From an uncultured Clostridia bacterium (lineage in GTDB: Bacteria > Bacillota > Clostridia > TANB77 > CAG-508), in the NCBI GenBank assembly GCA_944388935.1, contig CALXKK010000001.1, forward strand, positions 62,344 through 126,343: 64,000 nucleotides of DNA, given 5' to 3'. The notes beneath the pieces were generated by a model, which was given only the letters and a program-made list of their open reading frames with translations, was not told where the DNA came from and made no database searches. This document shows, piece after piece, positions 33,060-54,517 of this stretch (the stretch's first letter is position 1; every line of letters starts with the position of its first letter). A program made the translations under genes and the position numbers.

Positions 33060-33074
33060 ATTATCACCTAAATT

Positions 33075-34583
33075 TTAAATATATGCTAAGAAATATAGAA
33101 TGTTATCCATTATTACGAAATTTCCTTCATATCCTAATTTTCTTTTAGCAGCATACGCATAAAATAAATTTCTGTTAGGATATGCTTCTAAAAAATTATC
33201 CTCAAAATTTCTACCAGTATAGAAATTTATCGTTCCAATAGCAGACCACGTACAAGCAACTCCATCATAAGTTAAAACAGATTGATTCGATATTTCGTTA
33301 AAGTATCCATATTTTTTCATATCTGATAATTTAAAATATCTTGCCTCTGTAATTTTTACATCGTTTTCTTTCTCATAACTTTCGATATATGTTTCCAAGC
33401 CTTCACATTGTTCCTTCTCTAGCTTATTTACTTGTTTGTGCTGATATAATAAATAAATTGTATTTACAATAGTTATAATGTTGTAAGCAATTAAAGTTGC
33501 TATTAACAAATATTTAATAATTGTTTCATCTTCAAATATACTTGTACTACTAAACAAATAAATAAATATTACACCAATTAAAGCTCCTACTGGCACGTGG
33601 ATTCTGCCTGTATCATAACTTGTAATACTAACAATACACATTGCAAATGTTATAAGTACTGTAACAAAACAAATAAAAGCTATATTGAATACTAAGCCAT
33701 ATTTTTTTGCTTTTATTCCATAAATTCCTGCCATTAAAGTAATAATTAATATAATTGAAATCATTAAATAACTTGGGAATAATCCACAATTACTTACCAA
33801 AATAGTATCAAATACCATTTTTTTGAAATTAATTAGTATCCTTAAGAAATAGGTTACTAAATTTTCTATACCATTTAATCTTTCTTGAGTTGTTCCTGCT
33901 ATTGCAGTCGCAACATTTATTTGTATTAAATTTGCAACAAAAGATACTAATGTAATACCTATAATTACCCCAAAATCCTTAAGTATCTCTTTTATCTCTT
34001 TACCATTTTTTGCTATAGAAAAAGCTACACCATACAACGCAAATAAGCCGATTGTACCCTGATAACAAAATGTTGCTAATATAGCTAACAATGTAGCTTT
34101 TATAATATAAAAATCACTTCTCTTTATAATTTGATTAACTGCTAGTATATAGAATAATATACTAAATGCCATTACTGCAGATTCTACAAAGTATAAATTT
34201 TCTACATACATAAAATTAAATATTGTACAATATGATATTAAAATTGCAATAAACTCTTGTAATTTCGTTTTCTTTGTAGAGAATTTCATAATTATATTTT
34301 TTAATACAATAACAGCAATGCATGATACAACTAAAGCAATAACAGTTAAAGTTATTACATAAACATTAATAGGAATGTTTATTGTATTTGCAAGCATCCC
34401 TATTAAAAACATAAATATTCTTCCATCACTTAAAGAATTATTTATTGCATATGTTCTATATCCTATATTCATTATATTATATGTATCTGTTGCATAATGC
34501 ATAGATACGTAATTCCAAAAAACAGCCCCAGTTATTACAAATAAAATAAAAAATAGTATTATGTTTTTTGTTCTCTGTTTCAT
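33075..34583 (-). CDS. Polytopic membrane protein, paralogue of 31560-33059
   Basis: MHYATDTYNIMNIGYRTYAINNSLSDGRI..., same architecture as its neighbour. Confidence 0.4.
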   Translation of the reverse strand: MKQRTKNIILFFILFVITGAVFWNYVSMHYATDTYNIMNIGYRTYAINNSLSDGRIFMFLIGMLANTINIPINVYVITLTVIALVVSCIAVIVLKNIIMKFSTKKTKLQEFIAILISYCTIFNFMYVENLYFVESAVMAFSILFYILAVNQIIKRSDFYIIKATLLAILATFCYQGTIGLFALYGVAFSIAKNGKEIKEILKDFGVIIGITLVSFVANLIQINVATAIAGTTQERLNGIENLVTYFLRILINFKKMVFDTILVSNCGLFPSYLMISIILIITLMAGIYGIKAKKYGLVFNIAFICFVTVLITFAMCIVSITSYDTGRIHVPVGALIGVIFIYLFSSTSIFEDETIIKYLLIATLIAYNIITIVNTIYLLYQHKQVNKLEKEQCEGLETYIESYEKENDVKITEARYFKLSDMKKYGYFNEISNQSVLTYDGVACTWSAIGTINFYTGRNFEDNFLEAYPNRNLFYAYAAKRKLGYEGNFVIMDNILYFLAYI

Positions 34584-38425: not shown

Positions 38426-41400
38426 CTATCTTTCATCTCTTTCATCACTTTCTTTTCTTATTTCCTCCATAACAGATTTCACCATCTGTCGTTTTTCTAC
38501 ACTTAATGATGACATATCTACTTGTGCATCTTGTGCTCCTATTTGTTTTAATGCTTTCTTCACTTGATAACGTATATGATTTTCCGCTTTTTGCTTTTGC
38601 TCCTCGGTTAACCCCTCTCTTAATGGTGAAGATAAAACATTTCCGATTTTTATTTTTTCATCATCTTGACTATAAATAATAGCCATTCTTGCAGTAGCCA
38701 ATACCCTCGTAGTATTTGGGTCAAGCCCATATTCTTCCGCTACAGTATTCATAAGTCTTTCAGATTTTTTAAGTTGTTCATCATCACCTGTTTCATTAAA
38801 ATATACTGTATTATTGTTTTCAGATTCTCGGTCCATTCTTCTTAATGTTAATAGCACTCTATCTGTCATATTTGTACTATCATACAAAGGAATATCATCT
38901 TGATGAACATATAAGTTTTCTTGCTTAGATTCTACAATTCCATCCCTTTCTGCAATTGTATATTGAATTTTTGCATCAGTATATGGATTTGGTAATCTTC
39001 TTGTAGATTTCACACCTACTGTATCACTTTCTTGATGTATAGTTTTATCCGATTTTATTGCACTCGCAATATCATTATATCCTAAGCCAATTGTTACTTT
39101 GCCTAATACTAATGAATCATATTGTTCTTGCGTAATATCTCCTTTTTTTAACAATTCTTGATATACTCTTTTGTCTTCTTCCATTAAATCTTGTGCTGCT
39201 TTTTTATAGACGCCTAAAACCTCTGCTGCTAAGCCTTTTCTTCCTTTATCAGGATGTTCTGTTTCATATAACCTAAAAATCCTATTGGGTATTTCTATAT
39301 TATCAAAACAGCCTGTGTATTGATTTCTCCAAAACCAACTTTGTGCAACCAATCTTCCTTCTTCATCTTTTACACAAAAAACTCTACCATCAGGGGATAC
39401 AACGCTATGCTCCATACTTGTTTGGCCAGCTCCATGTATTTCTTGGCAACAATCTGTAAGTGTTCCAATTGTTAATGCTAGTGGGTCATCACATCTAAGC
39501 ATTTCGTATGTATACCCATTAGTTTTTCCTTGTATTCTGGGAATACTAGAAAAATCCCTAGTTTCACCTTCATTAAATAGTTTTTGTATAGCTTCAAAAT
39601 CTTCTTGAGAATATCCAGCTATTTTGGCTTGTTCGGCAACTCCCTCATTACCAATATCAATATTAGAATACACTATACTTCTTATATATGCTTGTGCTAC
39701 GTCCCAAGTTAATTTCCTACCAGCATTTGTTCTAACAATATCCTTAAATTGTCTTTGCATTGTAGCAATATCTTTACTATATTCAGGATTTGACAATATT
39801 TCGTCACAATTTTCTACAAAAAATTTAACAAAGTCCGGATTATATTCCATTTTAAAAGAATCAAATATCTGATGAGCTTTAATTGGAGTTAAGATTCTGG
39901 GAAAATCTGCTTCCTCTAATATTCCTCTAACTGTCTTTGTTCTATTCTTGTCACTTTGTGCATTAAATGATAAATTATACTTTCCATCTTTTCCTATTTT
40001 ATATGCTTGTTCTAAAATTGTTTGTAGCTCTTTATTATTTCTATTATAGCTAATTGATTGCATTACTTGTTCATATTCTTCGGCAGATAAATCCTTTGGA
40101 AGTCCTGCAAATAATTCCATTGTCCTATTAAATCCTTCATTATCACCTTGGAATACTCCCATGCTATACGCTGCTTTTAAAAGTGCTGCTTTACCATCGT
40201 TATTACGATTATAAAAATCTATGGTCATTAATTTAGACCATTTTTTCCCATTTGCCAAGAAACTATCAATTTCTTCTTCTGGGAAATTTATCATAACAAC
40301 AAAATTAGGTAAAAATCTTCCACCTGTTGCTTTATACCAACTTTCCAAAGTGCTAACTCTATGGTAACTTACCATTTTATCAATAGTTACTGGATCTCTT
40401 GCTCCTAATTTCATTAATGTATCACTATCAAATTTTCTAAACAATTCGTCATAATTTGGCATAAATGCTAGCCTTATATCTTTTCCTTGTAAAAATTCTT
40501 TCCATTCCGGATATCTCTTTATTAATTCGAAATTTAATTTGATACTAACGTTAGTATCATGTAATTTATTATTATAATACAATGTTTTTAATAATTCTGG
40601 TGCCTCATTATCCAAAAACATCTCCGGACGTCTTTTCTTAAAAAAGTCAGGAATTGTTTCGATAAAAGGAGATTTTCTAGTTAAAATATTCTCCTCTATA
40701 TTTTGCTGTATTGCTCTTTCTTTATCTTGCTTACTTTGACCTTCCACAAAAATTCCAGCGTTAACACCTTCCAAAAATTCTCCGTACTTTTCTGCAAAAT
40801 ATATTATCTCTTGCTCTGTAAGTTTTTCCCACATTGGTCTTACTTCTCTTTGTCTTTGACCATATCTTAGTGGTTTGCATTTTGTATTTCCAAATCCTAC
40901 ACCAATATCTTTTGACAATAATATCTCCCTTAATTGTGGGTTCTGCCTTACATCTTCAAAAGTTAAATCTCCTGAATAAAACTTATTTCTTAATTTTTCA
41001 TCAACCTCTTCTGGAAGAAATAAGTCTGGATGCTTTTCTTTAAAACTTGATGGTAATTCTTCAAAATATACCATTCCCTTATCTTTTATTTCTCCATATA
41101 TAGCATCTTCAATTTTTTCTCTAATACTTTCAAGTGTAAAATCTCTTGAAATGGACAATGATATACTATCTAAGCATTTTCCATAGTCAGCACAAATCCT
41201 TAAGAACTCCTCTTGACCTATTTTTTCTATAACATATTTAGCCATATTTACCTTTTTTCCTTGTAATATTTGTATAAGTTCTGGATTTTGTCTGATATCC
41301 TCAGCACTCATATGTCCTCTATAAAATTTATTTTTTATTGAAACATTAACACCATCTATAAATATATCAGGATGCTCATCTCTAAAACTTCCTGTTATAA

Positions 41401-41773
41401 AATCATAATCAGCGAAAACTCCTGTTTCTATACCTTGCCCTTTTTCTCTTGCATGAAGCAGAATTTCATACATTCTATTTTTAAAATCATCATAGCTTAA
41501 TTCTCCAGAATTAATATCTTTTGAATTTTCTTCATTGCCTGCATATGTATTTGAATCAGAAATAGCAAACACTGTAAGATATATATCATTCCCCCATAAT
41601 GTATGAGAAAACATCCCATTAGTTTCTTCATCCAACCTAATTATATTATCTATTCCATATTTTGTTATAAATCTTCTTTTACTCTCCGAATGTGGTCCCA
41701 TACTGATAGAATCAATAGGAATTTTTTCTATTTCCAGTAATTCTTTAATTCGGTGTAAATCTAATACTTCCAT
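38426..41773 (-). CDS. Large (1115 aa) repeat-containing intracellular protein of unknown function
   Basis: No signal peptide or TM segment. Three ~45-aa internal repeats (xHPD[IL]F...NKFY.G.[LM][ST].ED[IV]RQNP.L..IL). Central Cys/His-rich block LRCDDPLALTIGTLTDCCQEIHGAG...RVFCVKDEEGR. Acidic coiled-coil tail. AAGGAG SD. Confidence 0.5.
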   Translation of the reverse strand: MEVLDLHRIKELLEIEKIPIDSISMGPHSESKRRFITKYGIDNIIRLDEETNGMFSHTLWGNDIYLTVFAISDSNTYAGNEENSKDINSGELSYDDFKNRMYEILLHAREKGQGIETGVFADYDFITGSFRDEHPDIFIDGVNVSIKNKFYRGHMSAEDIRQNPELIQILQGKKVNMAKYVIEKIGQEEFLRICADYGKCLDSISLSISRDFTLESIREKIEDAIYGEIKDKGMVYFEELPSSFKEKHPDLFLPEEVDEKLRNKFYSGDLTFEDVRQNPQLREILLSKDIGVGFGNTKCKPLRYGQRQREVRPMWEKLTEQEIIYFAEKYGEFLEGVNAGIFVEGQSKQDKERAIQQNIEENILTRKSPFIETIPDFFKKRRPEMFLDNEAPELLKTLYYNNKLHDTNVSIKLNFELIKRYPEWKEFLQGKDIRLAFMPNYDELFRKFDSDTLMKLGARDPVTIDKMVSYHRVSTLESWYKATGGRFLPNFVVMINFPEEEIDSFLANGKKWSKLMTIDFYNRNNDGKAALLKAAYSMGVFQGDNEGFNRTMELFAGLPKDLSAEEYEQVMQSISYNRNNKELQTILEQAYKIGKDGKYNLSFNAQSDKNRTKTVRGILEEADFPRILTPIKAHQIFDSFKMEYNPDFVKFFVENCDEILSNPEYSKDIATMQRQFKDIVRTNAGRKLTWDVAQAYIRSIVYSNIDIGNEGVAEQAKIAGYSQEDFEAIQKLFNEGETRDFSSIPRIQGKTNGYTYEMLRCDDPLALTIGTLTDCCQEIHGAGQTSMEHSVVSPDGRVFCVKDEEGRLVAQSWFWRNQYTGCFDNIEIPNRIFRLYETEHPDKGRKGLAAEVLGVYKKAAQDLMEEDKRVYQELLKKGDITQEQYDSLVLGKVTIGLGYNDIASAIKSDKTIHQESDTVGVKSTRRLPNPYTDAKIQYTIAERDGIVESKQENLYVHQDDIPLYDSTNMTDRVLLTLRRMDRESENNNTVYFNETGDDEQLKKSERLMNTVAEEYGLDPNTTRVLATARMAIIYSQDDEKIKIGNVLSSPLREGLTEEQKQKAENHIRYQVKKALKQIGAQDAQVDMSSLSVEKRQMVKSVMEEIRKESDERDER

Positions 41774-41830
41774 ACACTACTCCTTCTTGTGAATTTTAGA
41801 GGCTGTTGGAAACTCTAATTTAGTTCCTTC

Positions 41831-42811
41831 TTATAACAAATTTGGATATAGCATTTTCTTTTTTCTTAAAAGCAAATCTATATCTATATTTACAACATCT
41901 TTTATTAACGGACTGCTATTTACAGAAATTGTATCTGTTTTTACTTCTCTTAAAAATTTTGATGCATTTTGTTTGTCTTCTGTGAATATGCTACTGCTAT
42001 ATCCTGATGTATTATAGTTTATTTGTGCTATAGCTTCGTCTATATCCTCTACTTCTATAAAATCCTCATCATCTTCTAAAGGTAGTTTTAAACCACTTTT
42101 TACATATACATCTATATTTCTATTTTCTTTTAATATCTTTTCTATAAACTCTAAATGAGTTATATCTTCTATATACAAATCAAATTTATTGTAGCCTTTA
42201 ACAATTACCTCTATATTTGAGATTCTTTTTATCTTGTTTTGAAAGTCCCTATTTCCAACTGCTATTACTTTGTTTATACTTATATTGTTAGAAAGTAATT
42301 CTTCTAAATTGCTTGTATAAATTATTTGTACCAAGTTTTTATCAACTTTATATGCTTCTAAAACTCTTTGAACCAATATTAATATCAATTCATTCGTAGC
42401 TTTCATATAATCTGACTCACTTGCTATTATTAATGCATTATGAGTTAATATTGCTTTTAAAACTAGTTCTAATAAGCAATATGTATTTCCATCATATACT
42501 AAGCAAACTGTTCCTAGATTATCTGTTTGCTCGCCTTCTATGTAATTATTTTCGTTTTTATGCATATAAATAACTTTTCTATATGAATCTTCTATATCTG
42601 CCAATTTATCTTTTAGGATATTTATAATTTCGAAATCTAAAGCAAAACCATTATTATTTTTTACATCTATCTCGTTTGCTTTTTTTATACTTTCTGCATC
42701 TTCTTGTATTAAGTCAAAAATGCTGCTTACAATCTTCTTTGCATCAACATTCATATCCATATTAGTGTAAGACATAGTAGCATTTCCCAATATTTCTCTA
42801 ATATTATCCAT
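41831..42811 (-). CDS. Degenerate gamma-glutamyl-phosphate-reductase (ProA)-like / ALDH-fold protein, probably non-catalytic
   Basis: GTVCLVYDGNTYCLLELVLKAILTHNALII and SSIFTEDKQNASKFLREVKTDTISVNSSP resemble ProA segments, but the catalytic-Cys region is absent. Start moved to the ATG at 42811 (AGAGGTG SD). The track start is GTG. Confidence 0.4.
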   Translation of the reverse strand: MDNIREILGNATMSYTNMDMNVDAKKIVSSIFDLIQEDAESIKKANEIDVKNNNGFALDFEIINILKDKLADIEDSYRKVIYMHKNENNYIEGEQTDNLGTVCLVYDGNTYCLLELVLKAILTHNALIIASESDYMKATNELILILVQRVLEAYKVDKNLVQIIYTSNLEELLSNNISINKVIAVGNRDFQNKIKRISNIEVIVKGYNKFDLYIEDITHLEFIEKILKENRNIDVYVKSGLKLPLEDDEDFIEVEDIDEAIAQINYNTSGYSSSIFTEDKQNASKFLREVKTDTISVNSSPLIKDVVNIDIDLLLRKKKMLYPNLL

Positions 42812-42835
42812 ACTATCTTGCACCTCTTTCTTTCT

Positions 42836-42857
42836 GAACTTTAGGAACGAATCTTAG
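42836..42857 (+). repeat. Degenerate REP-like repeat, copy C (GAACTTTAGGAACGAATCTTAG), abutting the RBS of the ProA-like gene
   Basis: Matches the consensus at ~17 of 22 positions. Confidence 0.35.
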
Positions 42858-42932
42858 CTATGCATATAGCCCACTCTAACGAAATTAAAAATTTCTAGAG
42901 TGGCTTAAAAGGTTCGGATTTTATGTTAATCT

Positions 42933-43892
42933 TTAAAAGTCTCTATCAAAACCTTCATCATTAATTTCTTGAGAAACCTTCTTGCCCCTAGAAAAAATGC
43001 CTCTTAAACTTGATTGAAGTCGTGTTAAATTTCCAGTACTTCTTCCAAACGCAATTTTTTGTACTTCTCCTCCTCCAAAACCGCTAGGAGAATTTGCTGT
43101 TGCTCTTACACTTCTAGTTTTACCTTCATCTAAAAATCTTGACTTCTCTTGAACCATATCTATAAACTCTTCAAAAGTATAGACCTTAGAAGCATCCAAC
43201 CTAGATTCTTGCATCCATTTTTGTACTCTAGCTTTATTCTCCGGTGATGTAAAAATGCCAAATAACTGCTCGGGATTTCTTTTTAGGTTTACTGAGCCCA
43301 TTGCGTCCATTATTTTAAGCTTTTCATCTTGCTTACCTTTTGGTAGAAGAGCAAAAACACATCCGCAAGGCAATGAACGTTCATATGCAGTTAAATCTGT
43401 ATAGAATGCTACTGTTCTATTCATAGATCTCACTGTTGTAGCCGAAATTTCTCCCTTAGGATTTGTAGATTTTACAAATCCATTATACCTATCTGCAGAA
43501 GAAGAAATATTTCCACTTCTAATAATTTGCTCCGCATAATAAATTGGAGTACCATGAAATCTTAAATCCAATTTATCTGAAATAACAGCATTAAGTCTTG
43601 CTGAAAATGTTCTAAACTGATAAATTCTATAATTCATATCTTCAGCATTATTAGGTCTAATAAATTTAGCAGTAAGTTTTACTTCTTCGATATTATATTT
43701 CCATTTTTCAACTTCCATATATGCTTCCATATACTCTACAGATCTTCTACCATACCTTCTTCTAGTTACATTTAAATCTTGCATAGCATCTGCTAAGCTT
43801 TTATTATATCTATTAAATTTAGAATTTAGGATTTCTCTATCCTTCTCATATAATTTTTGTGGATCTGTTTCTCTCCTTATTCCATTCTTCAT
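42933..43892 (-). CDS. Hypothetical protein (~320 aa); N-terminus of the ORF-track model is REP-derived
   Basis: The track ORF begins MLDNINIIFELLRSVPKVQSS, which is the in-frame translation of REP copy D. The likely true start is ATG 43892 (MKNGIRRETD) or 43910. No family recognised. Weak R/S-T-N/E-Q pattern only. Confidence 0.4.
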   Translation of the reverse strand: MKNGIRRETDPQKLYEKDREILNSKFNRYNKSLADAMQDLNVTRRRYGRRSVEYMEAYMEVEKWKYNIEEVKLTAKFIRPNNAEDMNYRIYQFRTFSARLNAVISDKLDLRFHGTPIYYAEQIIRSGNISSSADRYNGFVKSTNPKGEISATTVRSMNRTVAFYTDLTAYERSLPCGCVFALLPKGKQDEKLKIMDAMGSVNLKRNPEQLFGIFTSPENKARVQKWMQESRLDASKVYTFEEFIDMVQEKSRFLDEGKTRSVRATANSPSGFGGGEVQKIAFGRSTGNLTRLQSSLRGIFSRGKKVSQEINDEGFDRDF

Positions 43893-43917
43893 TTTATCTT
43901 TACACCTCATCTGTTTT

Positions 43918-43953
43918 GAACTTTGAACTTTGGGGACGGACCTTAAAAGTTCA
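43918..43953 (+). repeat. REP-like repeat, copy D (extended form TTGAACTTTGAACTTTGGGGACGGACCTTAAAAGTTCAAATATTATGTT)
   Basis: Near-identical over ~50 nt to copy E. Confidence 0.6.
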
Positions 43954-43989
43954 AATATTATGTTAATATTATCTAACATCTATTTTTAT

Positions 43990-44312: not shown

Positions 44313-45365
44313 TTATTTCTTTTCCATATTTTTTGTTTCTAAAAGTAATTTATCAAAATCTGATGTTATTTTTTGATGTTTGTTAAATTCGTTATATTCC
44401 TTTTCTGCCTTTTCCTCAGCCATTCTTCTAGAAATTTTTCCATTATCCTTTAATATATCATATTTTCTAAATTCCAAGAATTCATTAACACTTTTTGCAA
44501 ATTCCTCCATTGTGAATGTGTTTTCTCTTTCTACTAAATCTTCTATATAATCAAAATAACCAGATATCGCTCTTTCTAGTCTTTTTATTTGTTTTTCTTC
44601 TAAATAGTTTTTTGCTATCATTACATCTGATTTTAAAATTCTTCCATCTGGTGAGTTCTTCCATGTTGTTAATCCCATATTTTCTTTAGTATGATCTGCT
44701 TTTTGATATATGATTTCTGCTGCTGTATTTCCTGTTATTGCATAATGAAATTTATTTTGTATCATAGCATAAAATTTCTTTGTAATCTCTGAATCTTTAT
44801 CATAATCAATACTGCATTCTGCAAATATATCTGTTATCTGTTGCCAAATTCTTCGTTCGCTTGTTCTAATTGAACGAATTCTTTCTAAAAGTTCTTTAAA
44901 ATAATCTTTTCCAAATTTAGGTCCATTTTTTAATAATTCATCATTTAACACAAAACCTTTTTTTATGTATTCTTTTAATGTATTAGTTGCCCAAATTCTA
45001 AAGTCAGTAGCTTCTTTTGAATTAACTCTATAACCCACTGCAATAATAGCATCTAAACTATAAAAAGTTAATTCTCTTGAAACACTTCTATTTCCTTCTT
45101 TTTGAACTGTTCGAATTTTTCGAATAGTTCGATTTTCCTCTAATTCATGAGTTTCAAAAATCTCTTTTAAATGATAATTTATAGTATTTACTTCAACATT
45201 AAATAATTTTGACATCGATTTTTGAGTTAACCAAAAATCTTCATTGTCGTATAATACTTCTACAGATATACTTTCATTGTTTTTACTTTGATATATAATT
45301 AAATCTCTTAAATATTCTAATTTGCTCACCATTTCACACTCCTTTTTTTGTGTTTTGTCATTCAA
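44313..45365 (-). CDS. RhuM-family (virulence protein RhuM-like) protein
   Basis: FWLTQKSMSKLFNV...IRKIRTVQKEGNRSVSRELTFYSLDAIIAVGYRVNSKEATDFRIWATNTLKEYIKKGFVLNDELLK is a close match to the RhuM-family core. Confidence 0.75.
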   Translation of the reverse strand: MNDKTQKKECEMVSKLEYLRDLIIYQSKNNESISVEVLYDNEDFWLTQKSMSKLFNVEVNTINYHLKEIFETHELEENRTIRKIRTVQKEGNRSVSRELTFYSLDAIIAVGYRVNSKEATDFRIWATNTLKEYIKKGFVLNDELLKNGPKFGKDYFKELLERIRSIRTSERRIWQQITDIFAECSIDYDKDSEITKKFYAMIQNKFHYAITGNTAAEIIYQKADHTKENMGLTTWKNSPDGRILKSDVMIAKNYLEEKQIKRLERAISGYFDYIEDLVERENTFTMEEFAKSVNEFLEFRKYDILKDNGKISRRMAEEKAEKEYNEFNKHQKITSDFDKLLLETKNMEKK

Positions 45366-45375
45366 ATTTTCCCTC

Positions 45376-46416
45376 CTATTTTTTTATTAAATCTTTTGAA
45401 TAATAATACATATCAACACATTGCATATTTCCATCCCATAATTCTTCATTATAATTATCTATAAAGAAATTTTTTATTGTCTTTTCATATTTATCAAATC
45501 CTTGTTTAACATAGAATGGTATGTTATTTTCTGTTGTTCCTACAATCATATTTTTATATCTTGGCTTATAGTTATCTGCCAAATATTTTATCATTTTTTT
45601 GCCATATCCTTTGCCTCTGTAGTTTTCTTTAGTTGCTATGTTTTTTAACTCTACAGTATCATTATCAACCTTTGTTACCACAGAAACGCAAACAGGTTCA
45701 TCTTTATATGTTAATACAAACAAGTCCCCATCAGCTAAGTACTTTCTAACTATCTCTTCGCTTGGATCTGCCTCAAGAAGTAACTCTAAATATTGCTCCT
45801 TATTTTCTCTTTCTTTTCTTATATTAATAGAAGGGTTCACAGGTAAGAACTCAAAACCTTCTGGTAATTTTGGTGGTTGGAAATCCTCACCTAAATATCT
45901 ACCTCTCTCGGAAAAGATGCAACCACAATACTTTTGAATATACAAGCCTAATTCTCTGGCTTTTGCTTGTCCAACTTTAAATCCAACTCTAAAATCTCTA
46001 TACAAAAAGTCTAAACCATATTTTTTCGCAATCACTTCACCTAATTTTTTTATAACGTCATGTTTTTGATATGGACTTACTAAAAGTGTTGTAGTAATTG
46101 TATCAAATCCATGCTCCTTCGCATACTTTGCTGTTTGCTCCAAACGAACTGGATAACAATAATCTTGGCATCTTGTTTCCAAAGAATCTACTACATTTTT
46201 GCAAAACTTATCTAAGCCATAATCATCTTCGAAAATGGCTTCCACATTTATGCTCTTAGTATATTCTTTTAAGCAATCTCTTCTTGCCTTATACTCTGTA
46301 TATGGATGAATATTAGGGTTAAACCAATAAACTGTTGGCTCTATTCCTTCATCTCTTAGTGAATCTATGCAATATACACTACAAGGTGCACAGCACGTAT
46401 GCATTAATAATTTCAT
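45376..46416 (-). CDS. Fusion protein: epoxyqueuosine reductase QueH (DUF208) N-terminus plus GNAT acetyltransferase C-terminus
   Basis: MKLLMHTCCAPCSVYC is the hallmark QueH Cys cluster, with further Cys (CQDYC, CGC). The C-terminus ...ELKNIATKENYRGKGYGKKMI is a GNAT acetyl-CoA-binding motif. GGAGGAG SD lies 4 nt upstream of the ATG at 46416. The track ORF's first 39 aa are REP-derived. Confidence 0.65.
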   Translation of the reverse strand: MKLLMHTCCAPCSVYCIDSLRDEGIEPTVYWFNPNIHPYTEYKARRDCLKEYTKSINVEAIFEDDYGLDKFCKNVVDSLETRCQDYCYPVRLEQTAKYAKEHGFDTITTTLLVSPYQKHDVIKKLGEVIAKKYGLDFLYRDFRVGFKVGQAKARELGLYIQKYCGCIFSERGRYLGEDFQPPKLPEGFEFLPVNPSINIRKERENKEQYLELLLEADPSEEIVRKYLADGDLFVLTYKDEPVCVSVVTKVDNDTVELKNIATKENYRGKGYGKKMIKYLADNYKPRYKNMIVGTTENNIPFYVKQGFDKYEKTIKNFFIDNYNEELWDGNMQCVDMYYYSKDLIKK

Positions 46417-46429
46417 TTTTCTCCTCCTT

Positions 46430-46465
46430 GAACTTTGAACTTTAGGGACGGACCTTAAAAGTTCA
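46430..46465 (+). repeat. REP-like repeat, copy E (extended form), 3' flank of the RAYT gene
   Basis: GAACTTTGAACTTTAGGGACGGACCTTAAAAGTTCA followed by a partial second copy (GTGAACTTTTAAA). Confidence 0.6.
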
Positions 46466-46587
46466 AATATTATGTGAACTTTTAAATCAGTACCATTCCA
46501 ATCATTCCTATTTACCAATATTATTCCTTGCATGAATTCAGGTTATATCAGTAATTCATATACCTGCTCTTGACTTGTTCATCAACA

Positions 46588-47355
46588 TTATTCGTGTATC
46601 AATCTATGTATTTTTAATCTATTAACACCTATAATCTCTGCTATTTCCTTCTGTGTGAATCTGTATTTTTTATTCATAATTATAGATATTTCCTTTAAAT
46701 ATTTATTATCATATTTTAAAACGCTAATATTAATAATATTCTTTTTTCGTAAGAATTCATCTAGCACTTGTAATTTCAAATTATTTTTATCTTTTAAGTC
46801 TTCGTCATCCATAAAATTATAGTCAGTTGAATCTTTTATCAATATTGTATTTAAATCAATATTATATGTACTCAAAATTTTTAACACTTTATTTTTGTTT
46901 ATCAAATATTCTTTATTCTTAAATTCCTTATAACTTGAGAATTTGTATTCTGATTGATTGTTGCATATTTTCGCTTTTACCGGATTATTATGAATATAAT
47001 GTATACAATTTATCAAATATTTCCTAGATATAATTTCCTCAGACTTAAATCTATCTCTAAACACATATCCACATCTATCGTGATTTTTATTATAGTAGAT
47101 GGCATAACTTGTATTAACCTTTTTCATTAATTTAGAAACCAAATTTATATCTTGAGAATATACTAAAAAATGAGCATGATTATTCATAATACAGTATGTA
47201 ACTATGTATACATCAAAACTCTTTAGTTTTTCCTTTATAATTTTTAAATATACTTCGACATCTTTTTCTTTATTGAATATATATTCTCTATTTATCCCTT
47301 GTATCATAATGTGTATAAATTTAGAATTTATTTCTTTTCTTGCTCTTCGTGGCAC
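46588..47355 (-). mobile_element. REP-associated tyrosine transposase (RAYT; IS200/IS605-like Y1 HUH transposase, COG1943-type) with C-terminal HTH extension
   Basis: MPRRARKEINSKFIHIMIQGINREYIF N-terminus, HUH motif NHAHFLV, catalytic-Tyr helix IHYIHNNPVKA, C-terminal HTH FTQKEIAEIIGVNRLKIHRL. Flanked by inverted REP copies E and F. Confidence 0.7.
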
Positions 47356-47580
47356 GCAAAAACCTCCTTTAAAATATTAATTTTTGCCCCCACTTTTAAC
47401 TTAAAATTAATTTAAATTGACATTAATCTTATAAGTTTTTTCTTATGTGATGTATTATACCAAATTTATCATCTTATGTAAACATTAACCAGTTTATTAA
47501 CCATAATATTCCATTCTCTTGTTATTCAACAATTTTACCATTCTATTACCACATCATCATTATTTTTTATGTAACCCGAT

Positions 47581-47609
47581 GAACTTTTAAGGTCCGTCCC
47601 TAAAGTTCA
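47581..47609 (-). repeat. REP-like repeat, copy F (inverted), 5' flank of the RAYT gene; overlaps the last codons and stop of the membrane-protein gene
   Basis: GAACTTTTAAGGTCCGTCCCTAAAGTTCA is the reverse complement of the consensus. Confidence 0.6.
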
Positions 47610-49087
47610 TAAATGTCGAAAAAGTTTACTGTTCCTATCTTTTCTAAGTTTTCCCTTACGTATTTTATTACTTCCGTTGGTGTTTGCCAATTTAACGCAA
47701 TTTTATTATTTTTTATTAGTATTACAGCATTCTTCATATTTTTTATTCTTTCAATTTGTCCTTCTTCGCTGTTTTCTCCTAAATTTCCTTTTAAAAACAT
47801 GTCAAAGTCTTTATTGTATCTGTCTAGTGGTATCATATATACCGCAGCTTCTGAGTCTAAAATGTATACATCTTTATTTTCCTCTTGTATATATGCATCT
47901 ACTTCTATAATTCTATCCTGTAAAGAGGAAGTTATTGGAATGTTAGAAAAATGTTTTAATACTGATTTATCCGATGATGCATATAAATATATATCGTTTA
48001 TTGATTCTAATATTAATAATCCTATAAATGATATTGTTATTATGTTCATAAAATGTTCTATAAATATCGATACTTTTATGTTTTTTATTTCTTGAATACT
48101 TTTGCAAATATAATACAAAACCACCATAACTGTTGGTAGTGCAGCTATTCTAAAGTGTATATCATCTGATATTGGATATACCATAATAAACTGAGCTAAT
48201 GAAAATACAAATAGTATTAAATATTGAATATTATTATGTATTTTTCTTTGCTTCATATTTACTAAATTTGCAATTAACAACACAATTAAAGTAATTGGTA
48301 CTATTAACGCTACAAAAGCCATAAAATCCTTGCCACGTATAAGTTTTAAATATGATATTTTGTTTTGGAATGTTCCTATTCCTAAAACACAATAATCTAT
48401 AAAGCTTGACATTGAATTTGTTAAAAGTAAATATATAACAAAAATCACACATGGAATAAAAACTCCCACAACTCTGTATAAAACTGCTTTTGCGGTTTCT
48501 TTATCTTTTTTTTCTAGCAATAAATATAAAACAGTTATAGCAGAAATAATTATTCCTGTACTTTGCTTAAACAAAATAGTTATCCCAGCAAGTAAACCTA
48601 TTAAAATATTATATTTTGCACCAAAATTTCTATATTTAAGTTCAAAATAAATAAGTAATAATGTAACAAATAAAATTGCATAATTATAATCTATATAAAA
48701 ACTATCTTTTATAAATAAAAACAATAAAGCTGATGAAAATACTGACCATTTAGTATTTAATTTTAGTTCTTTCAAAATTTTATACGCTACAAAAATTATT
48801 CCAGCTCCTAAAAATGTAGAAACAATTCGCATAACAAATAATTCTTGGCCAAATAATTTTAAAATTCCACCAAGAATAAATGATAATAATGGTGTTTGCA
48901 ACATATTAAAATCTTTATATGGTAATAATCCATTTGATATATTTCTTGCGAAATTAAAATTCCATATTTCATCAAGATTTTCTAAATTTCTAGGCAATAC
49001 TGTAGCTGCAAATAATATTATTGTTATAATTATAAAAGATATATCTATTAATCTAGCTTTTAACTTTGCTTTAGTTTCCTCTTTCAC
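47600..49087 (-). CDS. Polytopic membrane protein, possible GT-C-like glycosyltransferase
   Basis: ~12 TM helices. N-terminal loop has NLENLDEIWNFNFARN and LPYKDFNMLQTPL, reminiscent of GT-C DE / HPPL-type motifs. Confidence 0.4.
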   Translation of the reverse strand: MKEETKAKLKARLIDISFIIITIILFAATVLPRNLENLDEIWNFNFARNISNGLLPYKDFNMLQTPLLSFILGGILKLFGQELFVMRIVSTFLGAGIIFVAYKILKELKLNTKWSVFSSALLFLFIKDSFYIDYNYAILFVTLLLIYFELKYRNFGAKYNILIGLLAGITILFKQSTGIIISAITVLYLLLEKKDKETAKAVLYRVVGVFIPCVIFVIYLLLTNSMSSFIDYCVLGIGTFQNKISYLKLIRGKDFMAFVALIVPITLIVLLIANLVNMKQRKIHNNIQYLILFVFSLAQFIMVYPISDDIHFRIAALPTVMVVLYYICKSIQEIKNIKVSIFIEHFMNIITISFIGLLILESINDIYLYASSDKSVLKHFSNIPITSSLQDRIIEVDAYIQEENKDVYILDSEAAVYMIPLDRYNKDFDMFLKGNLGENSEEGQIERIKNMKNAVILIKNNKIALNWQTPTEVIKYVRENLEKIGTVNFFDIYEL

Positions 49088-49106: not shown

Positions 49107-50111
49107 TTATTTATTGTATTCTATATTTAAATGTTCATATGCAGCAGGAAGCGCAATTCTTCCCCTTGGAGTACGAGATATAAAACCTATTTGCATTAAA
49201 AATGGTTCATACACATCTTCTATAGTCTCTATTTCCTCTCCTGTTGTGGCAGCTAAAGCTTCTATTCCAACAGGACCTCCTGCATATTTATTTATAATTG
49301 TAAGCAATATATTTCTATCTGTTTGGTCTAGTCCTAAATCATCTATTTCTAGCTTATTTAGAGCAATTTTAGCCATTTCTAGATCTACATCACCATTTCC
49401 TAAAACTGATGCATAATCCCTTACTCTTTTTAAAATTCTATTTGCAATTCTTGGCGTTCCTCTAGACCTTTTTGCAATTTCCATACTTGCTTTATCGTCT
49501 ATATTTACATTTAAAATTCCAGCAGATCTTTTTACAATTTTTTGTAAATCTTCTGGTTCATACAATTCCAATCTCTCAACAATTCCAAATCTGTCCCTTA
49601 AAGGAGTGGTTAAAGAACCCGCTTTTGTCGTTGCACCTATTAATGTAAATTTAGGCAAGTCCAATCTTATTGACCTAGCACTTGGTCCTTTTCCTATAAT
49701 TATATCTAAAGTATAATCTTCCAATGCTGGATATAATATTTCTTCTACACTCTTATTTAATCTATGAATTTCATCTATAAATAGGACATCAAATTCTGAT
49801 AAATTAGTAAGTAATGCTGCTAAATCTCCTGGCTTTTCTATTGCTGGTCCTGATGTAATTTTTATATTTGAATTCATTTCATTAGAAATAATATTTGATA
49901 ATGTAGTTTTACCAAGTCCTGGAGGTCCATATAAAAGTACATGGTCTAAAGGCTCCCCTCTTTTTTTGGCAGCTTCTATATATACTCTCATATTTTCTTT
50001 AACCTTAGTTTGTCCAATATATTCATCAAGTGTTTTAGGTCTTAATGAATTTTCTAATCTATTTTCTTCATCATTTATTAATTCCGGATTAATTAAATTT
50101 TCTTCGTCCAT
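49107..50111 (-). CDS. ruvB: Holliday junction branch-migration helicase RuvB
   Basis: [13 protein letters not shown] Walker A, FIDEIHRL Walker B, sensor motifs, winged-helix C-terminus. Confidence 0.95.
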
Positions 50112-50302: not shown

Positions 50303-51187
50303 TTAAACCCTAATCCACTCTTCTACCCATTCATCAGGTATCTTTAAATTTCCTTTTCCACAACCCATGTCTATATTAGGTTTATTTTTTCCGTGGTAAT
50401 CACTTCCACCACTTTTATAATATTTTCTTTCATTACATAAATTTACAAGATATTGAATCTGCTCTTCGAAAAATGTACTATGCATACATTCAATTCCATC
50501 AATATCGTATTTATCTAAGATATCATCTATTAATTGATACTTATCTTTTGCCCATTTATAGATAAATAAATGAGGTAAAAATACTAATCCTCCACACTCC
50601 TTGATAATCTTAACAGCTTCTTCTGTGCTAGGATAATCAGGCGTTTTATCTATATATAATGGATAATTTTGGTCTCCACAATATTTTTTAGAGAAAGCAT
50701 CAAATTCAGCCCAAAAATCTGCTGGAACCTTGGCCTGATTTTCTGGATGTTTTTTTATTTCGTTATAAATAGCTACACTTCCCCAACCATTTTTTGCATC
50801 CCAGTCGATTTTTTCTTTTGGATCCATTACAAGCCCCATTTGTACAGCCTTTTCATATTGAATGTTAAAATATTTTGTCTGTAACTTTTCTCTAGATTTA
50901 TCTTTATAATATTCAACTGTCCATTGTTTCATTTTCTTTGGGTCAAATTGATATCCTAATACCTCAATCAAATTTTTTCCATAACTACATTTTATCTCTA
51001 TTCCCGGAATTATTTTCCCTTTAAAATATTTATGTACATCTATTTTTTCTAGTTCTTCATATCCATTACAATTATCATGATCTGTAATAGAAATATAATT
51101 TAAATTTTTTTCTTGGGCCTTTTTTAATAATTCTATTATAGAATCTGACCCATCTGAATTTGTAGAATGCATATGTAAATCAATCAT
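50303..51187 (-). CDS. PHP-domain phosphoesterase (histidinol-phosphatase-like)
   Basis: MIDLHMHSTNSDGS and ISITDHD metal-binding His motifs of the PHP superfamily. Confidence 0.7.
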   Translation of the reverse strand: MIDLHMHSTNSDGSDSIIELLKKAQEKNLNYISITDHDNCNGYEELEKIDVHKYFKGKIIPGIEIKCSYGKNLIEVLGYQFDPKKMKQWTVEYYKDKSREKLQTKYFNIQYEKAVQMGLVMDPKEKIDWDAKNGWGSVAIYNEIKKHPENQAKVPADFWAEFDAFSKKYCGDQNYPLYIDKTPDYPSTEEAVKIIKECGGLVFLPHLFIYKWAKDKYQLIDDILDKYDIDGIECMHSTFFEEQIQYLVNLCNERKYYKSGGSDYHGKNKPNIDMGCGKGNLKIPDEWVEEWIRV

Positions 51188-52097
51188 TTCTTTCCTCTCC
51201 CACTATTGTATTTACTTTCACTTTTCTATCAGTAGTATTATCTTTATTTTCTAATTCATATAATGTATTTAATTCCTCAACATAGGGCATTAATGTAGGC
51301 GCAGATTCCGAAAAAACTGAATGTATCATTTCATACTGCATAGGAAATTTTCGCATAAAATCTCTTTTAAATGTTCTTCTGCCATATATAACAGCTTCGC
51401 TTGGACTTTTAAACTCTTGCCCTTCTGTAGTATAAAAAGCATTAGGTCTATTTTCTCCTCTTTTATATACAGTTGCATGGTCAAATAATCCTTGCTCTTC
51501 GAATTGCTTCAAAGTTATTATAAAATTATCATAAGAAGCATCATGTACACTTTTAGGAACCCATCTTGGTTCAGTATCACTTACTAATTGCATAGCATAC
51601 CTTAAAAAGGTAGAAGTATAACTTTCCAGTTTTGGAACAGCCATTAATTCTAAATCTATTTCGTAACCTGCTTCTTTATATTCTTTTGCCATTTTTACGA
51701 AACCTGATGTTGCTCTCATGGTCCCTTCATATATAATACTTAACTTATTATCTCTACAATAATCTCTAATTTCTTGACTTGCTCTATCTGCATCTGGTAA
51801 TAAGGCTAAGTGAATGTTTTCTCTATCCTGTTTATCTGCTACTTCAAAATTTGGATGCATTGATCTAACAACATCATAATCCGTAATTACTGCATTATAA
51901 TTTAATTGTTCATTTACAACTGGAGTCAATTTAGATTTTCCAGCTCCTGATTGTCCTGCTACAAAAACTAATCTTGGTTTTTTTTCTGGTTTCTTGCCTG
52001 TTGTAAAAAATAAATTAACTGAATGATAATATTGTTGATATTCTTCTTCTGTAAGTTTATATTTTGCTTGTAATACTTCTAATTCATCTTGTTCCAT
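51180..52097 (-). CDS. Zeta-toxin family kinase (UDP-GlcNAc kinase-type toxin)
   Basis: Walker A GQSGAGKS, SMHPNFEV (cf. QQHPNFDE), MAVPKLESYTSTFLRY (cf. MAVPKINSYLGTIERY), GLFDHATVYKRGE (cf. GLFSDIRLYNREG). Collinear with streptococcal zeta/PezT. Confidence 0.8.
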   Translation of the reverse strand: MEQDELEVLQAKYKLTEEEYQQYYHSVNLFFTTGKKPEKKPRLVFVAGQSGAGKSKLTPVVNEQLNYNAVITDYDVVRSMHPNFEVADKQDRENIHLALLPDADRASQEIRDYCRDNKLSIIYEGTMRATSGFVKMAKEYKEAGYEIDLELMAVPKLESYTSTFLRYAMQLVSDTEPRWVPKSVHDASYDNFIITLKQFEEQGLFDHATVYKRGENRPNAFYTTEGQEFKSPSEAVIYGRRTFKRDFMRKFPMQYEMIHSVFSESAPTLMPYVEELNTLYELENKDNTTDRKVKVNTIVGEERND

Positions 52098-52297
52098 TTC
52101 TTGCTATCTCCTACATATTTTTTTATAACTTCCATATTTTCTTTATTTATTTCATCTCTATCCAAAATTAGTATCTGTAATTCTTTTTTTATTTTTGGAT
52201 CCTGAGTTTTTTCATATTCTATGGATAGTTTTCCAACTTCTCGTGCAATCTTTTCTCGTGCAATCTCTAATCCAAATTCATTTAATAATAAATCCAT
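52079..52297 (-). CDS. Candidate epsilon-type antitoxin (72 aa helical protein) overlapping the zeta toxin start
   Basis: MDLLLNEFGLEIAREKIAREVGKLSIEYEK... GGAG SD lies 8 nt upstream of ATG 52297. Its 3' end overlaps the toxin start by 19 nt. The track start (TTG 52327) is less likely. Confidence 0.45.
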   Translation of the reverse strand: MDLLLNEFGLEIAREKIAREVGKLSIEYEKTQDPKIKKELQILILDRDEINKENMEVIKKYVGDSKKWNKMN

Positions 52298-52448
52298 TTT
52301 TTTACTCCATTTCTTACTTTTCGACAATAATTATAGCATTAAATTTAGTTTATTACAATTGTTTTGTTAAAAATACATTTTCCACTAATGTCATATTTTA
52401 TATATAAAATGCTACTCTATTTTTTCGATATATACTTTTACAATAATA

Positions 52449-52489: not shown

Positions 52490-53500
52490 TTAAAACAACA
52501 ATGGTTTAATTTGTTTCTCTATTAACTTTTTATATATTTTTACAAATATCTGTTGGAATCCATATTTATATGCAATATGCGCAACCCAATAACTTTTGTT
52601 AGGCACGTTTTTGAATTTAAAGCAAGGATTTTTTCTCCATTCGAAAAAGTTTATATCTAAATAATTCATTGTTTCTCTAACTAGGCTCTTTAAATCACTA
52701 CCAGTTTCGAAAGATAATTCTATTAAAGATCGTAAGCCTATTTTTGAGAATGCTATAAATGATAATATATTTTTCATTCTTTCATACTTTCCAGCATCTT
52801 TAAAAATCTTCTTTCCTTCTACTAAACCAGCTTTTAAATCCTTTATTTGAACAGCATTTTTTAAACTTTGAATAGAATTATCTTCATATTTAAAGAATAA
52901 TTCTTCATTAATAAAAGATACTGTATTTGCTTTAGCATAACAACTTATAACAAAAATTTCATCTTGACATCCATCATAATTTTGGAATTTTATATCCTTT
53001 ATTGTTTCTTTTTTTATTAATTTATTACCTGCATCTAAATTTAAATATGCGAAATTTAGATTATTTCCATCTAAGCTTTCTTTTTCTTTAAATTTGTTTT
53101 CCAATCCTGTAACTCTTAATTCATTAGAATTAATGTCAATTATATTATAACCGCAAATTGCAATGTCTGTATTGTTATTTTCTGCAGCATTATACATCTT
53201 TTCTATAGCTGTTTTTTCTAAACACATATTTCCGTTCATAACTAAAATATATTTGCCATCAGCCTCTTCTAATGCCTCATTTTTAGCCAAAACATCTTGT
53301 GCCTTTGTTTTATATATAATTTTTATATTTTTATGTTTTTCTTGTGTTTCTTTTACAAAGTCATCAATCTGTGTGTTTTCTTCTTTATAAATACAAATAA
53401 TTTCTATATTCTCTAATGTTTGATTTACTAAACTATTTAAACATTCTTTTACTTTTTTATGTCTCTTCTTTAAAATTGTAATAACTGATACATTATGCAT
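52490..53500 (-). CDS. Glycosyltransferase family 2-like (GT-A) protein
   Basis: N-terminal VSVITILKKRHKKVKECLNSLVNQTLENIEIICI matches the GT2 Rossmann-like start. Central acidic motifs are degenerate. Confidence 0.5.
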   Translation of the reverse strand: MHNVSVITILKKRHKKVKECLNSLVNQTLENIEIICIYKEENTQIDDFVKETQEKHKNIKIIYKTKAQDVLAKNEALEEADGKYILVMNGNMCLEKTAIEKMYNAAENNNTDIAICGYNIIDINSNELRVTGLENKFKEKESLDGNNLNFAYLNLDAGNKLIKKETIKDIKFQNYDGCQDEIFVISCYAKANTVSFINEELFFKYEDNSIQSLKNAVQIKDLKAGLVEGKKIFKDAGKYERMKNILSFIAFSKIGLRSLIELSFETGSDLKSLVRETMNYLDINFFEWRKNPCFKFKNVPNKSYWVAHIAYKYGFQQIFVKIYKKLIEKQIKPLLF

Positions 53501-53563
53501 TGCAATTCCCCCTAATTATCTTTAAATACTCCGCCTTTTTGTATATTTTCAAAACTTACTATT

Positions 53564-54517
53564 TTATTCTTCATTATCGCTTTCGTCAATATTAAATGTT
53601 CTTTCTACTATATATTGTGGTCTTCTCTTAGTTTCATCATAGATTCTTCCTATATATTCTCCTATCATCCATAAAGATATAAGTATCATTCCACTTAAGA
53701 AAGTCATAGTTACCATTAAAGATGTCCACCCAGCAGTTAAATTGTTCCAATTAAATATATATGATAAAATTGCATATATTAGAATTACTATTGATATAGC
53801 CAAAGAAATAATTCCCATTGTTCCTACAATTTTTAGTGGTTTTGTAGAAAAACTAAAAATTCCATCTTTTGCAAGTTTAAGCATTTTCTTTAATGGATAT
53901 TTAGTCTTTCCTGCAAATCTTTCTTTTCTTTCATATTCAAAAGGTGTTTGCTTAAAGCCTACCCAACTAAACAAACCTCTTAAAAATTTATTATGTTCTG
54001 GTAAAGAATTTACTACATCTACAACTTTTCTATCTACTAGCCTAAAATCCCCTGTATCTTTAGGTATTTCCACATCTGATAATGCATTTAATGTTTTATA
54101 GAACATTGAAGCAGTTAGTAATTTAAATTTAGATTCTCCTTCTCTAGACTTTCTTTTTCCATAGATTACTTCATTTCCAGCTTTCCATAGTTTAAGCATT
54201 TCCGGTATAAGTTCTGGTGGATCCTGCAAATCTGCATCTATAATTACTATTGCATCACCAGTAACATATTTAAGTCCTGCTGTTACTGCACATTGATGCC
54301 CAAAGTTTCTAGAAAAAGAAATTACTTTAACTTTTTTATTTTCGTTAGCTATATTTACTAATATACTTAAGGTCTTATCTTTGCTTCCATCATTTATAAA
54401 TATAATTTCATAATCATATCCATTTAAATTTTCTAATACCTTTTTCAATCTTTTATAGCATTCTTCTGCTACTTCTTCTTCATAATACATAGGTACTACA
54501 ACTGAAACTTTTTTCAT
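53564..54517 (-). CDS. Bactoprenol-phosphate glycosyltransferase (GT2, GtrB/CsbB/DPM1-like) with two C-terminal TM helices
   Basis: VSVVVPMYYEEE...IIFINDGSKDKT...IDADLQDPPE. 317 aa with a C-terminal membrane hairpin. Confidence 0.8.
   Translation of the reverse strand: MKKVSVVVPMYYEEEVAEECYKRLKKVLENLNGYDYEIIFINDGSKDKTLSILVNIANENKKVKVISFSRNFGHQCAVTAGLKYVTGDAIVIIDADLQDPPELIPEMLKLWKAGNEVIYGKRKSREGESKFKLLTASMFYKTLNALSDVEIPKDTGDFRLVDRKVVDVVNSLPEHNKFLRGLFSWVGFKQTPFEYERKERFAGKTKYPLKKMLKLAKDGIFSFSTKPLKIVGTMGIISLAISIVILIYAILSYIFNWNNLTAGWTSLMVTMTFLSGMILISLWMIGEYIGRIYDETKRRPQYIVERTFNIDESDNEE

Follow-up and report, generated by a model that had tools for sequence, protein, structure and literature searches.

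An intact fusion of QueH with an accessory acetyltransferase domain in an uncultured Clostridia bacterium, and comparative evidence for a recombination junction inside queH

We analyzed a gene that joins QueH, an epoxyqueuosine reductase, to an acetyltransferase of the GNAT family. It lies in a 64,000-nucleotide stretch of DNA from an uncultured Clostridia bacterium (GenBank assembly GCA_944388935.1, contig CALXKK010000001.1, positions 62,344 to 126,343 of the forward strand), here called the window. The gene proved to be a genuine and unbroken fusion of QueH with an accessory acetyltransferase domain, and comparison with related loci indicates that the variable or mobile part begins at queH codon ∼171 and takes in the DNA beyond it, GNAT included. 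We think it probable that QueH is an ordinary epoxyqueuosine reductase, that the GNAT is an accessory YvbK-type acetyltransferase, and that the two form one polypeptide because a variable region begins inside queH. The apparent hotspot at this point, together with a conserved noncoding element, seems to us a more unusual result than the fusion itself; both emerge from the comparison of relatives, not from this window.

RESULTS AND DISCUSSION

The fusion gene is intact and recurs across gut Clostridia

The original prediction, made from the letters of the window alone, was that QueH is fused here to a GNAT acetyltransferase. The gene proved to be one intact open reading frame (ORF) at exactly the predicted coordinates, with both domains above Pfam cutoffs (Table 1). 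The two peptide strings quoted with that prediction are both present, MKLLMHTCCAPCSVYC as residues 1 to 16 and ENYRGKGYGKKMI as residues 264 to 276. No frameshift or stop separates the domains, and independent assemblies covering many samples and hosts again contain the intact ORF. Starting from an ATG further upstream would lengthen the ORF to 46533, but this version was rejected as the gene because its extra part is read-through of a repetitive extragenic palindromic (REP) element.

The same architecture is common among uncultured gut Clostridia of low GC content, with more than 120 protein clusters and at least 60 species-level genomes carrying it. A search of 5.8 billion proteins gave 4,511 matches, and the best 120 clusters (90% identity) all contain two-domain proteins of 343 to 352 amino acids (aa) that are 72 to 97% identical. 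A scan of one genome per species returned 488 stretches with a relative, and the full-length fusion is present in ∼60 of the 80 species-level loci kept; its carriers among these loci are metagenome-assembled genomes of uncultured Clostridia or Clostridium from human, rabbit, mouse, and ruminant guts. Three contigs on record encode exactly the window protein. Clustering at 50% identity collapses the fusion family to a single representative, P0147. A divergent QueH-GNAT protein also exists (P0174, 39% identity), as does a QueH joined to an unrelated GNAT (P0163). In the literature searched, no paper names both “QueH” and “GNAT,” and searches for QueH with fusion or acetyltransferase returned nothing relevant.

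Several other GNAT proteins were set aside. Fusions to a truncated radical-SAM protein (P0171), a truncated VCA0040-like protein (P0152), and a NUDIX protein (P0158) were found on one contig each, with the contigs of P0171 and P0152 shorter than 2 kb and one contig at ∼2× coverage, and were not used as evidence of promiscuous insertion. An orphan GNAT (P0150; L082, 659 to 1321) is not what its locus encodes under table 11; in the source gene call, a TAG within the frame is decoded as Gln (LKQTPK). Probably the gene on this short contig was called with an alternative code, and the recoding is not real.

The QueH half retains the family's conserved residues

The Pfam QueH profile (PF02677) matches residues 3 to 171 with an E value of 1.4e-59 (201.6 bits against a cutoff of 23.5), covering profile positions 1 to 174 of 175. 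The fusion protein matches the sequence of Thermotoga maritima QueH (7lc5) at an E value of 2e-26, and in Foldseek the AlphaFold model of the QueH domain matches 9deu, a complex with queuosine, and 7lc5 with target-normalized template modeling (TM) scores of 0.83 to 0.87 (E value, 1e-12). To assess residue conservation, the fusion protein was aligned with 89 family representatives (n = 90). H6, E41, R45, C87, and R91 are invariant, and all are present in the window protein. Conservation is 90% or higher for C8, C9, P11, C12, N33 to P38, R82, C83, S114, Q117, D141, Y159, Q161, Y163, C164, G165, C166, and S169, all of which are kept. An N-terminal Fe-S signature with downstream cysteine pairs had been read as the mark of QueH, and the alignment bears this out with the full conserved set of seven cysteines (C8, C9, C12, C83, C87, C164, and C166), each found in 85 to 90 of the 90 representatives. 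We take this set (CCxPC, a middle pair, and CGC) to supply the ligands of a [4Fe-4S] cluster and an adjacent metal.

The window protein thus shares with T. maritima QueH (7LC5 and 9DEU; DUF208) the fold, the invariant residues, the C-terminal CGCxFSExxRY motif, and a full-length domain match. The two differ at position 12, which is Cys in the fusion protein and in 87 of the 90 representatives, T. maritima Asp13 being an exception; the PDB entry titles for T. maritima QueH mention C9S and D13N mutants. The middle cysteine pair of the window protein is spaced CxxxC, whereas 72 of the 90 representatives have CxxC; the CxxxC spacing also occurs in QueH-only members of the same clade. The domain extends through CGCxFSExxRY, and only the usual short basic tail is replaced: where other family members have a basic tail of 5 to 20 residues, the fusion protein has a C-terminal extension of ∼170 residues. 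QueH is normally a stand-alone enzyme, as the original prediction stated, and most representatives at 50% identity are 175 to 200 aa long. Rare architectures among these representatives (P0164, P0230, P0160, and P0224) comprise a QueH-ThiF protein, a QueH with an N-terminal extension of ∼170 aa, and long C-terminal extensions with no Pfam match.

The GNAT half is a YvbK-type domain under purifying selection

Pfam GNAT models match residues 221 to 314 (E values, 3.7e-11 to 2.2e-8), all above their curated cutoffs: Acetyltransf_7 at 43.7 bits (cutoff, 27), Acetyltransf_1 at 38.6 (20.7), and Acetyltransf_10 at 34.6 (23.6). Three PDB entries align with this half from end to end: 6ao7 from Elizabethkingia anophelis (4.9e-22), 1yvk, which is Bacillus subtilis YvbK (4.9e-18), and 1y9k, a Bacillus cereus “IAA acetyltransferase” (1.5e-12). 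Together with an intact RGKGYG motif, in which R267 is shared by all 52 fusion proteins compared and G270 by nearly all, these matches uphold the predicted C-terminal GNAT with an acetyl-CoA-binding motif. A search of the GNAT part against NCBIfam found no equivalog reaching its cutoff.

The YvbK-type proteins and the GNAT half have in common the hallmarks LLLxADPS, ELKNIA, R/QxxGxG, Y..GF, and FF.DNY.E.I.(D/E)(G/N)..C.DM, and in the alignment Y302 corresponds to Tyr114 of 6AO7 (chain residue 122), which has been proposed as catalytic. Unlike the YvbK-type proteins, which are stand-alone and ∼155 aa long, the domain studied here is fused to QueH; its loop before the catalytic Tyr is also 3 residues shorter, and the proposed Ser107 of 6AO7 is Asn in the fusion. 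On these matches the GNAT half is a complete, predicted acetyltransferase domain of the YvbK/6AO7 type. The only paper on this subfamily states the substrate as unknown and describes a dimer interface conserved in 6AO7, 1YVK, and 1Y9K.

Both domains are under similar purifying selection, and the linker of ∼25 residues is not. In 1,093 gene pairs among 55 fusion genes, the ratio of nonsynonymous to synonymous substitution rates (dN/dS) is 0.18 for QueH, 0.20 for the GNAT, and 0.44 for the linker, and the mean amino acid identities are 75%, 71%, and 42%, respectively. The value for the GNAT indicates a working domain and not a remnant. An AlphaFold model of the fusion protein has confident domain cores, with predicted local distance difference test (pLDDT) scores below 50 for residues 166 to 195 and a predicted TM score (pTM) of 0.53; these values indicate no confident packing between QueH and GNAT. 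The alignment behind the model was shallow (52 sequences, all at least 72% identical).

The GNAT varies at one point in queH

Proteins with and without the GNAT can be very close relatives. QueH-only proteins of 184 to 192 aa and fusion proteins of 346 to 347 aa share 90% clusters, namely, the window protein's own cluster and another, and the short proteins in these mixed clusters end in the canonical tail ...SEEDRY(K/Q)KKIEKDK. The GNAT is present or absent among strains that are 93 to 99.8% identical upstream. In the closest comparison, a locus encoding a plain 188-aa QueH (L114) and a fusion locus (L001) are 99.84% identical over 4,877 bp, from ruvB through the PMT_2 gene and the REP-associated tyrosine transposase (RAYT) gene into queH, up to codon 174; past this codon, the two share only a 25-nucleotide (nt) GNAT remnant in L114.

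A second pair reveals both ends of the inserted DNA. A fusion locus (L002) and a QueH-only locus (L064) are ∼91 to 95% identical on either side of a 1.75-kb insert, which starts in L002 at codon ∼171 and contains the GNAT and a 352-aa ORF. The native queH tail, SEEDRYKKKIEKDMNKNK-stop, is intact 3′ of the insert. Comparison of the empty site in L064 with the left and right junctions in L002 narrowed the crossover to TCAGARGA.

Other locus pairs and more distant proteins extend these observations. Among 35 locus pairs at least 88% identical over the 5′ part of queH, 7 lose homology at nt 510 to 522 of queH, another 7 close to where the short gene ends, and 14 at the fusion gene's stop. A tail-linker-GNAT module that is 93% identical is attached to QueH cores with identities of just 48% (P0169) and 69% (P0147); P0169 is on a short contig, yet it has ruvB upstream. 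Together, the mixed clusters, the two locus pairs, the break points, and the module exchange show recent and repeated gain, loss, and exchange of the GNAT at a single precise point in queH.

Displaced queH tails and a noncoding element in relatives

Displaced queH tails or GNAT copies occur at about 30 related loci. A second GNAT copy lies a few kilobases downstream in L017, L035, L043, and L067, and in L017, L043, and L067 it begins with a queH tail. Directly 5′ of most displaced fragments, and of displaced short tails in L002, L041, and L062, is a conserved noncoding element of ∼195 nt. An exact-pattern scan of metagenome contigs for this element gave 29 loci, of which ∼23 are genuine. Examples are found in L093 (3236 to 3428, minus strand), L087 (4150 to 4345, plus), L043 (9356 to 9546, plus), and L089 (3213 to 3406 and 4588 to 4780, plus). 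The element is always in the same orientation, downstream of queH, and usually abuts a displaced queH 3′ fragment starting at codon 169/170. Where the contig continues 3′ of the element, xEE(D/S)RY... usually follows within a few bases, as a short tail or as a tail plus GNAT; L035, L085, L092, and L102 are exceptions to this order.

The element begins in one of two ways. Either it starts directly after the rhuM stop, or it follows a terminator and a strong promoter-like sequence, TTGCCA-N17/18-TGATATAAT. The element would be either a rhuM 3′ untranslated region or a sequence with its own promoter. A hairpin near its 5′ end occurs at the same position in three different sequences. Some loci carry two copies, and the smallest unit consists of a tail, rhuM, and the element (L089 and L094). 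As cargo, the stretch from the fusion gene to the element carries genes for, among others, RhuM, a YhcG/DUF1016 nuclease, an Acyl_transf_3 protein, a polyprenyl synthetase, and proteins that matched no family.

Searches for known counterparts were negative. The element matched no Rfam family at gathering or E-value thresholds, had no consensus structure by RNAalifold on either strand and no conserved ORF, and found no match in viral contigs. No integrase was found among the scanned genes in or next to the units or flanking queH. An integron-like cassette array was rejected on the grounds that the scanned queH-flanking genes include no integrase and that the element has no consensus hairpin fold. 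The window was itself searched for a displaced queH tail and for the ∼195-nt element and has neither.

Tentatively, the last codons of queH (core TCAGARGA, codons 169 to 171) may be the attachment point of undescribed small integrase-less cassettes of gut Clostridia. A unit would open with a new queH tail in place of the old one, in many cases running on in frame into a GNAT, continue with one to three cargo genes (RhuM/PDC-S05, YhcG nuclease, acyltransferases, or others), and end with the ∼195-nt element. New units would insert beside queH and displace older tails and GNAT copies downstream, giving rise to arrays, and the QueH-GNAT fusion would be the visible product of such a cassette system. 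As for the element, it may serve as an att arm used by a trans-acting recombinase or as a guide- or bridge-like RNA with the queH target as its 3′ flank.

These putative cassettes resemble islands that integrate into the 3′ ends of genes, as at tRNA and transfer-messenger RNA (tmRNA) genes, and the orphan C-terminal modules of Rhs and contact-dependent inhibition (CDI) loci. All share a fixed junction within a conserved gene, a new 3′ end supplied by the DNA that comes in, an old end pushed downstream, and units stacked by repeated events. The cassettes differ from both in that no integrase was found, the replacement end adds a whole enzyme domain, and the units are only 1.4 to 3.5 kb long, each closing with the ∼195-nt element. 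For genome dynamics, the comparison of relatives shows a precise recombination junction in a housekeeping gene, where an enzyme domain and candidate defense genes are swapped alongside a conserved noncoding element. If the junction is site specific, it would represent a new way for accessory genes to capture host gene expression signals.

An accessory enzyme and the alternatives

In the reading that we favor, the QueH domain would perform the ordinary last step of queuosine (Q) synthesis, from epoxyqueuosine-tRNA to queuosine-tRNA, and the GNAT would be a functionally separate acetyl-CoA-dependent N-acetyltransferase acting on a small molecule or a protein. Being the first gene of a variable region that starts in queH, the GNAT would be expressed as a C-terminal extension of QueH by way of the queH promoter and ribosome-binding site. 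The fusion would then be a by-product of where the recombination junction lies, retained because both halves work on a flexible tether. Hundreds of gut Clostridia proteins with this architecture would accordingly be annotated as QueH plus accessory GNAT and not as a new queuosine enzyme.

Several points weigh against this reading. “Independent enzyme” is the default for the GNAT, not a result. The in-frame fusion and a KP.LP.GFEFLPV motif in the linker are kept in ∼60 species, and the tether itself could be selected. The model without domain packing is weak evidence, owing to its shallow alignment. The recombination history at the window is inferred from relatives. Finally, within the 64-kb window we found no other part of the Q pathway (tgt, queA, or queG) and no second queH.

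The original prediction went further and suggested a modified QueH function, such as acetylation coupled to queuosine or tRNA chemistry, a decoy, or defense. This suggestion gained no positive support: sister strains and species lack the GNAT, no confident packing is predicted, and PADLOC gave no match to the fusion protein.

The form of that suggestion that survives best is coupled chemistry, which we nevertheless consider unlikely. The GNAT would act on QueH-bound tRNA, on its queuosine to give an acetylated Q derivative, or on the aminoacyl group of Q-family tRNAs, with the tether bringing the acetyltransferase to the anticodon loop in a manner loosely like that of Elp3. Elp3 combines an Fe-S domain with a GNAT-type domain and acts at wobble U34. 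Conservation of the in-frame fusion in ∼60 species and more than 120 clusters, purifying selection on the GNAT, the existence of both a divergent QueH-GNAT (P0174) and a QueH with a different GNAT (P0163), and the unknown acceptor of the YvbK/6AO7 subfamily are all compatible with such chemistry. It is opposed by the dispensability of the GNAT in strains of the same species, by orphan and displaced GNAT copies and the single-contig NUDIX-GNAT fusion, by the predicted absence of interdomain packing, and by the closest GNATs being stand-alone enzymes of the small-molecule type. Moreover, we know of no Q derivative that is acetylated, which we count against it. Same-species pairs with and without the GNAT provide a natural test of further Q-tRNA modification.

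A role in defense or toxicity seems improbable. Here the GNAT and the adjacent RhuM/PDC-S05 protein would form an antiphage or addiction module, with QueH as a tRNA-targeting or decoy domain. The rhuM gene closely follows the fusion gene (Table 1) with no terminator-like site found between them, GNAT-RhuM units recur in arrays in relatives, and the region downstream of queH is hypervariable. However, rhuM follows fusion and QueH-only alleles alike (L064), which indicates that it is not tied to the GNAT, and, although rhuM is a frequent downstream neighbor in relatives, most fusion loci lack it. The fusion protein has no PADLOC match, no antitoxin-like partner is present, and QueH keeps all of its catalytic residues, which argues against a decoy. 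A GNAT toxin-antitoxin pair of the TacT/AtaT type, or a known defense system, was likewise rejected, with no PADLOC match and no ribbon-helix-helix (RHH)-type neighbor.

We are equally doubtful that the GNAT serves QueH as a dimerization or acetyl-CoA-sensing module and is not itself an enzyme. The dimer interface conserved in 6AO7, 1YVK, and 1Y9K and the conservation of the fusion are consistent with such a regulatory role, but in nearly every other bacterium, and also in sister strains, QueH works as a protein of ∼180 aa, and motif A and Tyr302 are conserved, as expected of an active enzyme.

A trivial origin, in which a sequencing or assembly error joined adjacent genes or the GNAT is a decaying remnant, is effectively refuted: frameshifted or truncated versions do occur in some few relatives (L056, L060, L061, L067, and L078), but the intact ORF is found in independent assemblies and the GNAT has a dN/dS of 0.20.

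Genomic setting of the fusion gene

The window has a GC content of 27.9%, and nearly all of its genes are on the minus strand. Features in and around the fusion gene are listed in Table 1.

Table 1. Features in and around the queH-GNAT gene (window positions)
Feature	Position	Strand	Remarks
queH-GNAT fusion ORF, complete	45376..46416	minus	346 aa plus stop; single uninterrupted ORF
Ribosome-binding site GGAGGAG	46421..46427	minus	4 nt 5′ of the fusion gene ATG (46416); read from the sequence
QueH (epoxyqueuosine reductase) domain	45895..46416	minus	Residues 1-174; Pfam, PDB match, Foldseek
Junction codons S169-Y174 (TCCGAGAGAGGTAGATAT)	45895..45912	minus	Putative; the window's diverged copy of the crossover site (TCAGARGA.. 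in relatives)
Interdomain linker (LGEDFQPPKLPEGFEFLPVNP)	45832..45894	minus	Residues 175-195; hypervariable among species
GNAT domain, YvbK/6AO7/1Y9K subfamily	45376..45831	minus	Residues 196-346 plus stop; Pfam, PDB sequence matches
Acetyl-CoA motif A loop, R267-G-K-G-Y-G272	45601..45618	minus	Read from the sequence
RhuM-family gene	44313..45332	minus	PADLOC candidate defense PDC-S05 (E value, 6e-154); starts 43 nt after the fusion stop
ruvB	49107..50111	minus	Conserved upstream anchor of queH in the clade
PMT_2 glycosyltransferase	47600..49087		Between ruvB and RAYT, upstream of the fusion gene
RAYT (Y1_Tnp)	46588..47355	minus	C-terminal sigma-70 region-4-like helix-turn-helix; inserted between the PMT_2 gene and queH
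REP copy	46436..46465	plus	Inverted pair with 47580-47609 around RAYT; direct pair with 43924-43953
REP copy	47580..47609	minus	Inverted partner flanking RAYT
REP copy	43924..43953	plus	Downstream of rhuM/orf99

Nearly all related loci have queH downstream of ruvB, in many of them directly after it, which identifies the QueH part as a syntenic core chromosomal gene. The ruvB-queH linkage in this clade is evidently very tight. In one relative, ruvB and queH form one ORF of 531 aa (L066, 3335 to 4930), and in another they overlap by 4 nt (L117, 798 to 801).

The original prediction placed the fusion in a mobile block flanked by REPs. The gene does have REP copies on both sides; the mobile block did not hold up, as the position of queH after ruvB is conserved and the RAYT gene and its REPs are a lineage-specific local insertion, found among the related loci only in L001, L009, L014, and L114. 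The inverted REP pair around the RAYT gene is perfect and 30 nt long (TGAACTTTAGGGACGGACCTTAAAAGTTCA), and this arrangement (46436 to 47609) is that of a textbook REPtron. The REPtron is a neighbor of the fusion gene and not its vehicle, given that queH stays linked to ruvB in RAYT-free genomes. We therefore rejected queH as cargo of a REP/RAYT unit, its position being conserved next to ruvB and most such loci lacking RAYT. Additional REP copies lie near 23756 and 23802 in the window, with a degenerate copy at 42835.

The downstream gene rhuM is very abundant, and its product is 85 to 95% identical at the amino acid level in more than 120 clusters. Nucleotide identity to L001 is ∼93 to 95% for rhuM versus ∼85% for ruvB, and this stronger conservation of rhuM between genomes suggests recent horizontal spread. 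RhuM had no sequence match in the PDB and no match in PHROG, and its AlphaFold model is poor (pLDDT, 50.6).

Other observations in the window

Four consecutive minus-strand ORFs with no or partial family matches (38426 to 43979) probably belong to the variable region downstream of queH. One encodes a 1,115-aa protein with no Pfam, PADLOC, or PHROG match. For a 330-aa ORF, the only match is to the final ∼50 residues of an aldehyde dehydrogenase profile, the annotated N terminus of a 348-aa ORF is read-through of a REP element, and the fourth ORF is 99 aa long.

Immediately upstream of ruvB, at the expected place of ruvA (50303 to 52327, minus strand), are a zeta-toxin family gene (51180 to 52097) and then a gene for a PHP-domain protein. 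An upstream ORF of 82 aa (52079 to 52327) overlaps the zeta-toxin gene and could encode its antitoxin.

Genes of the membrane glycosyltransferase type are unusually dense in the window (5634 to 7109, 31560 to 34583, 47600 to 49087, 52490 to 54517, and 55624 to 60796). The set comprises two PMT_2, two GtrII, at least one YfhO-like, and two GT2 genes, and its density suggests extensive variation of surface glycans.

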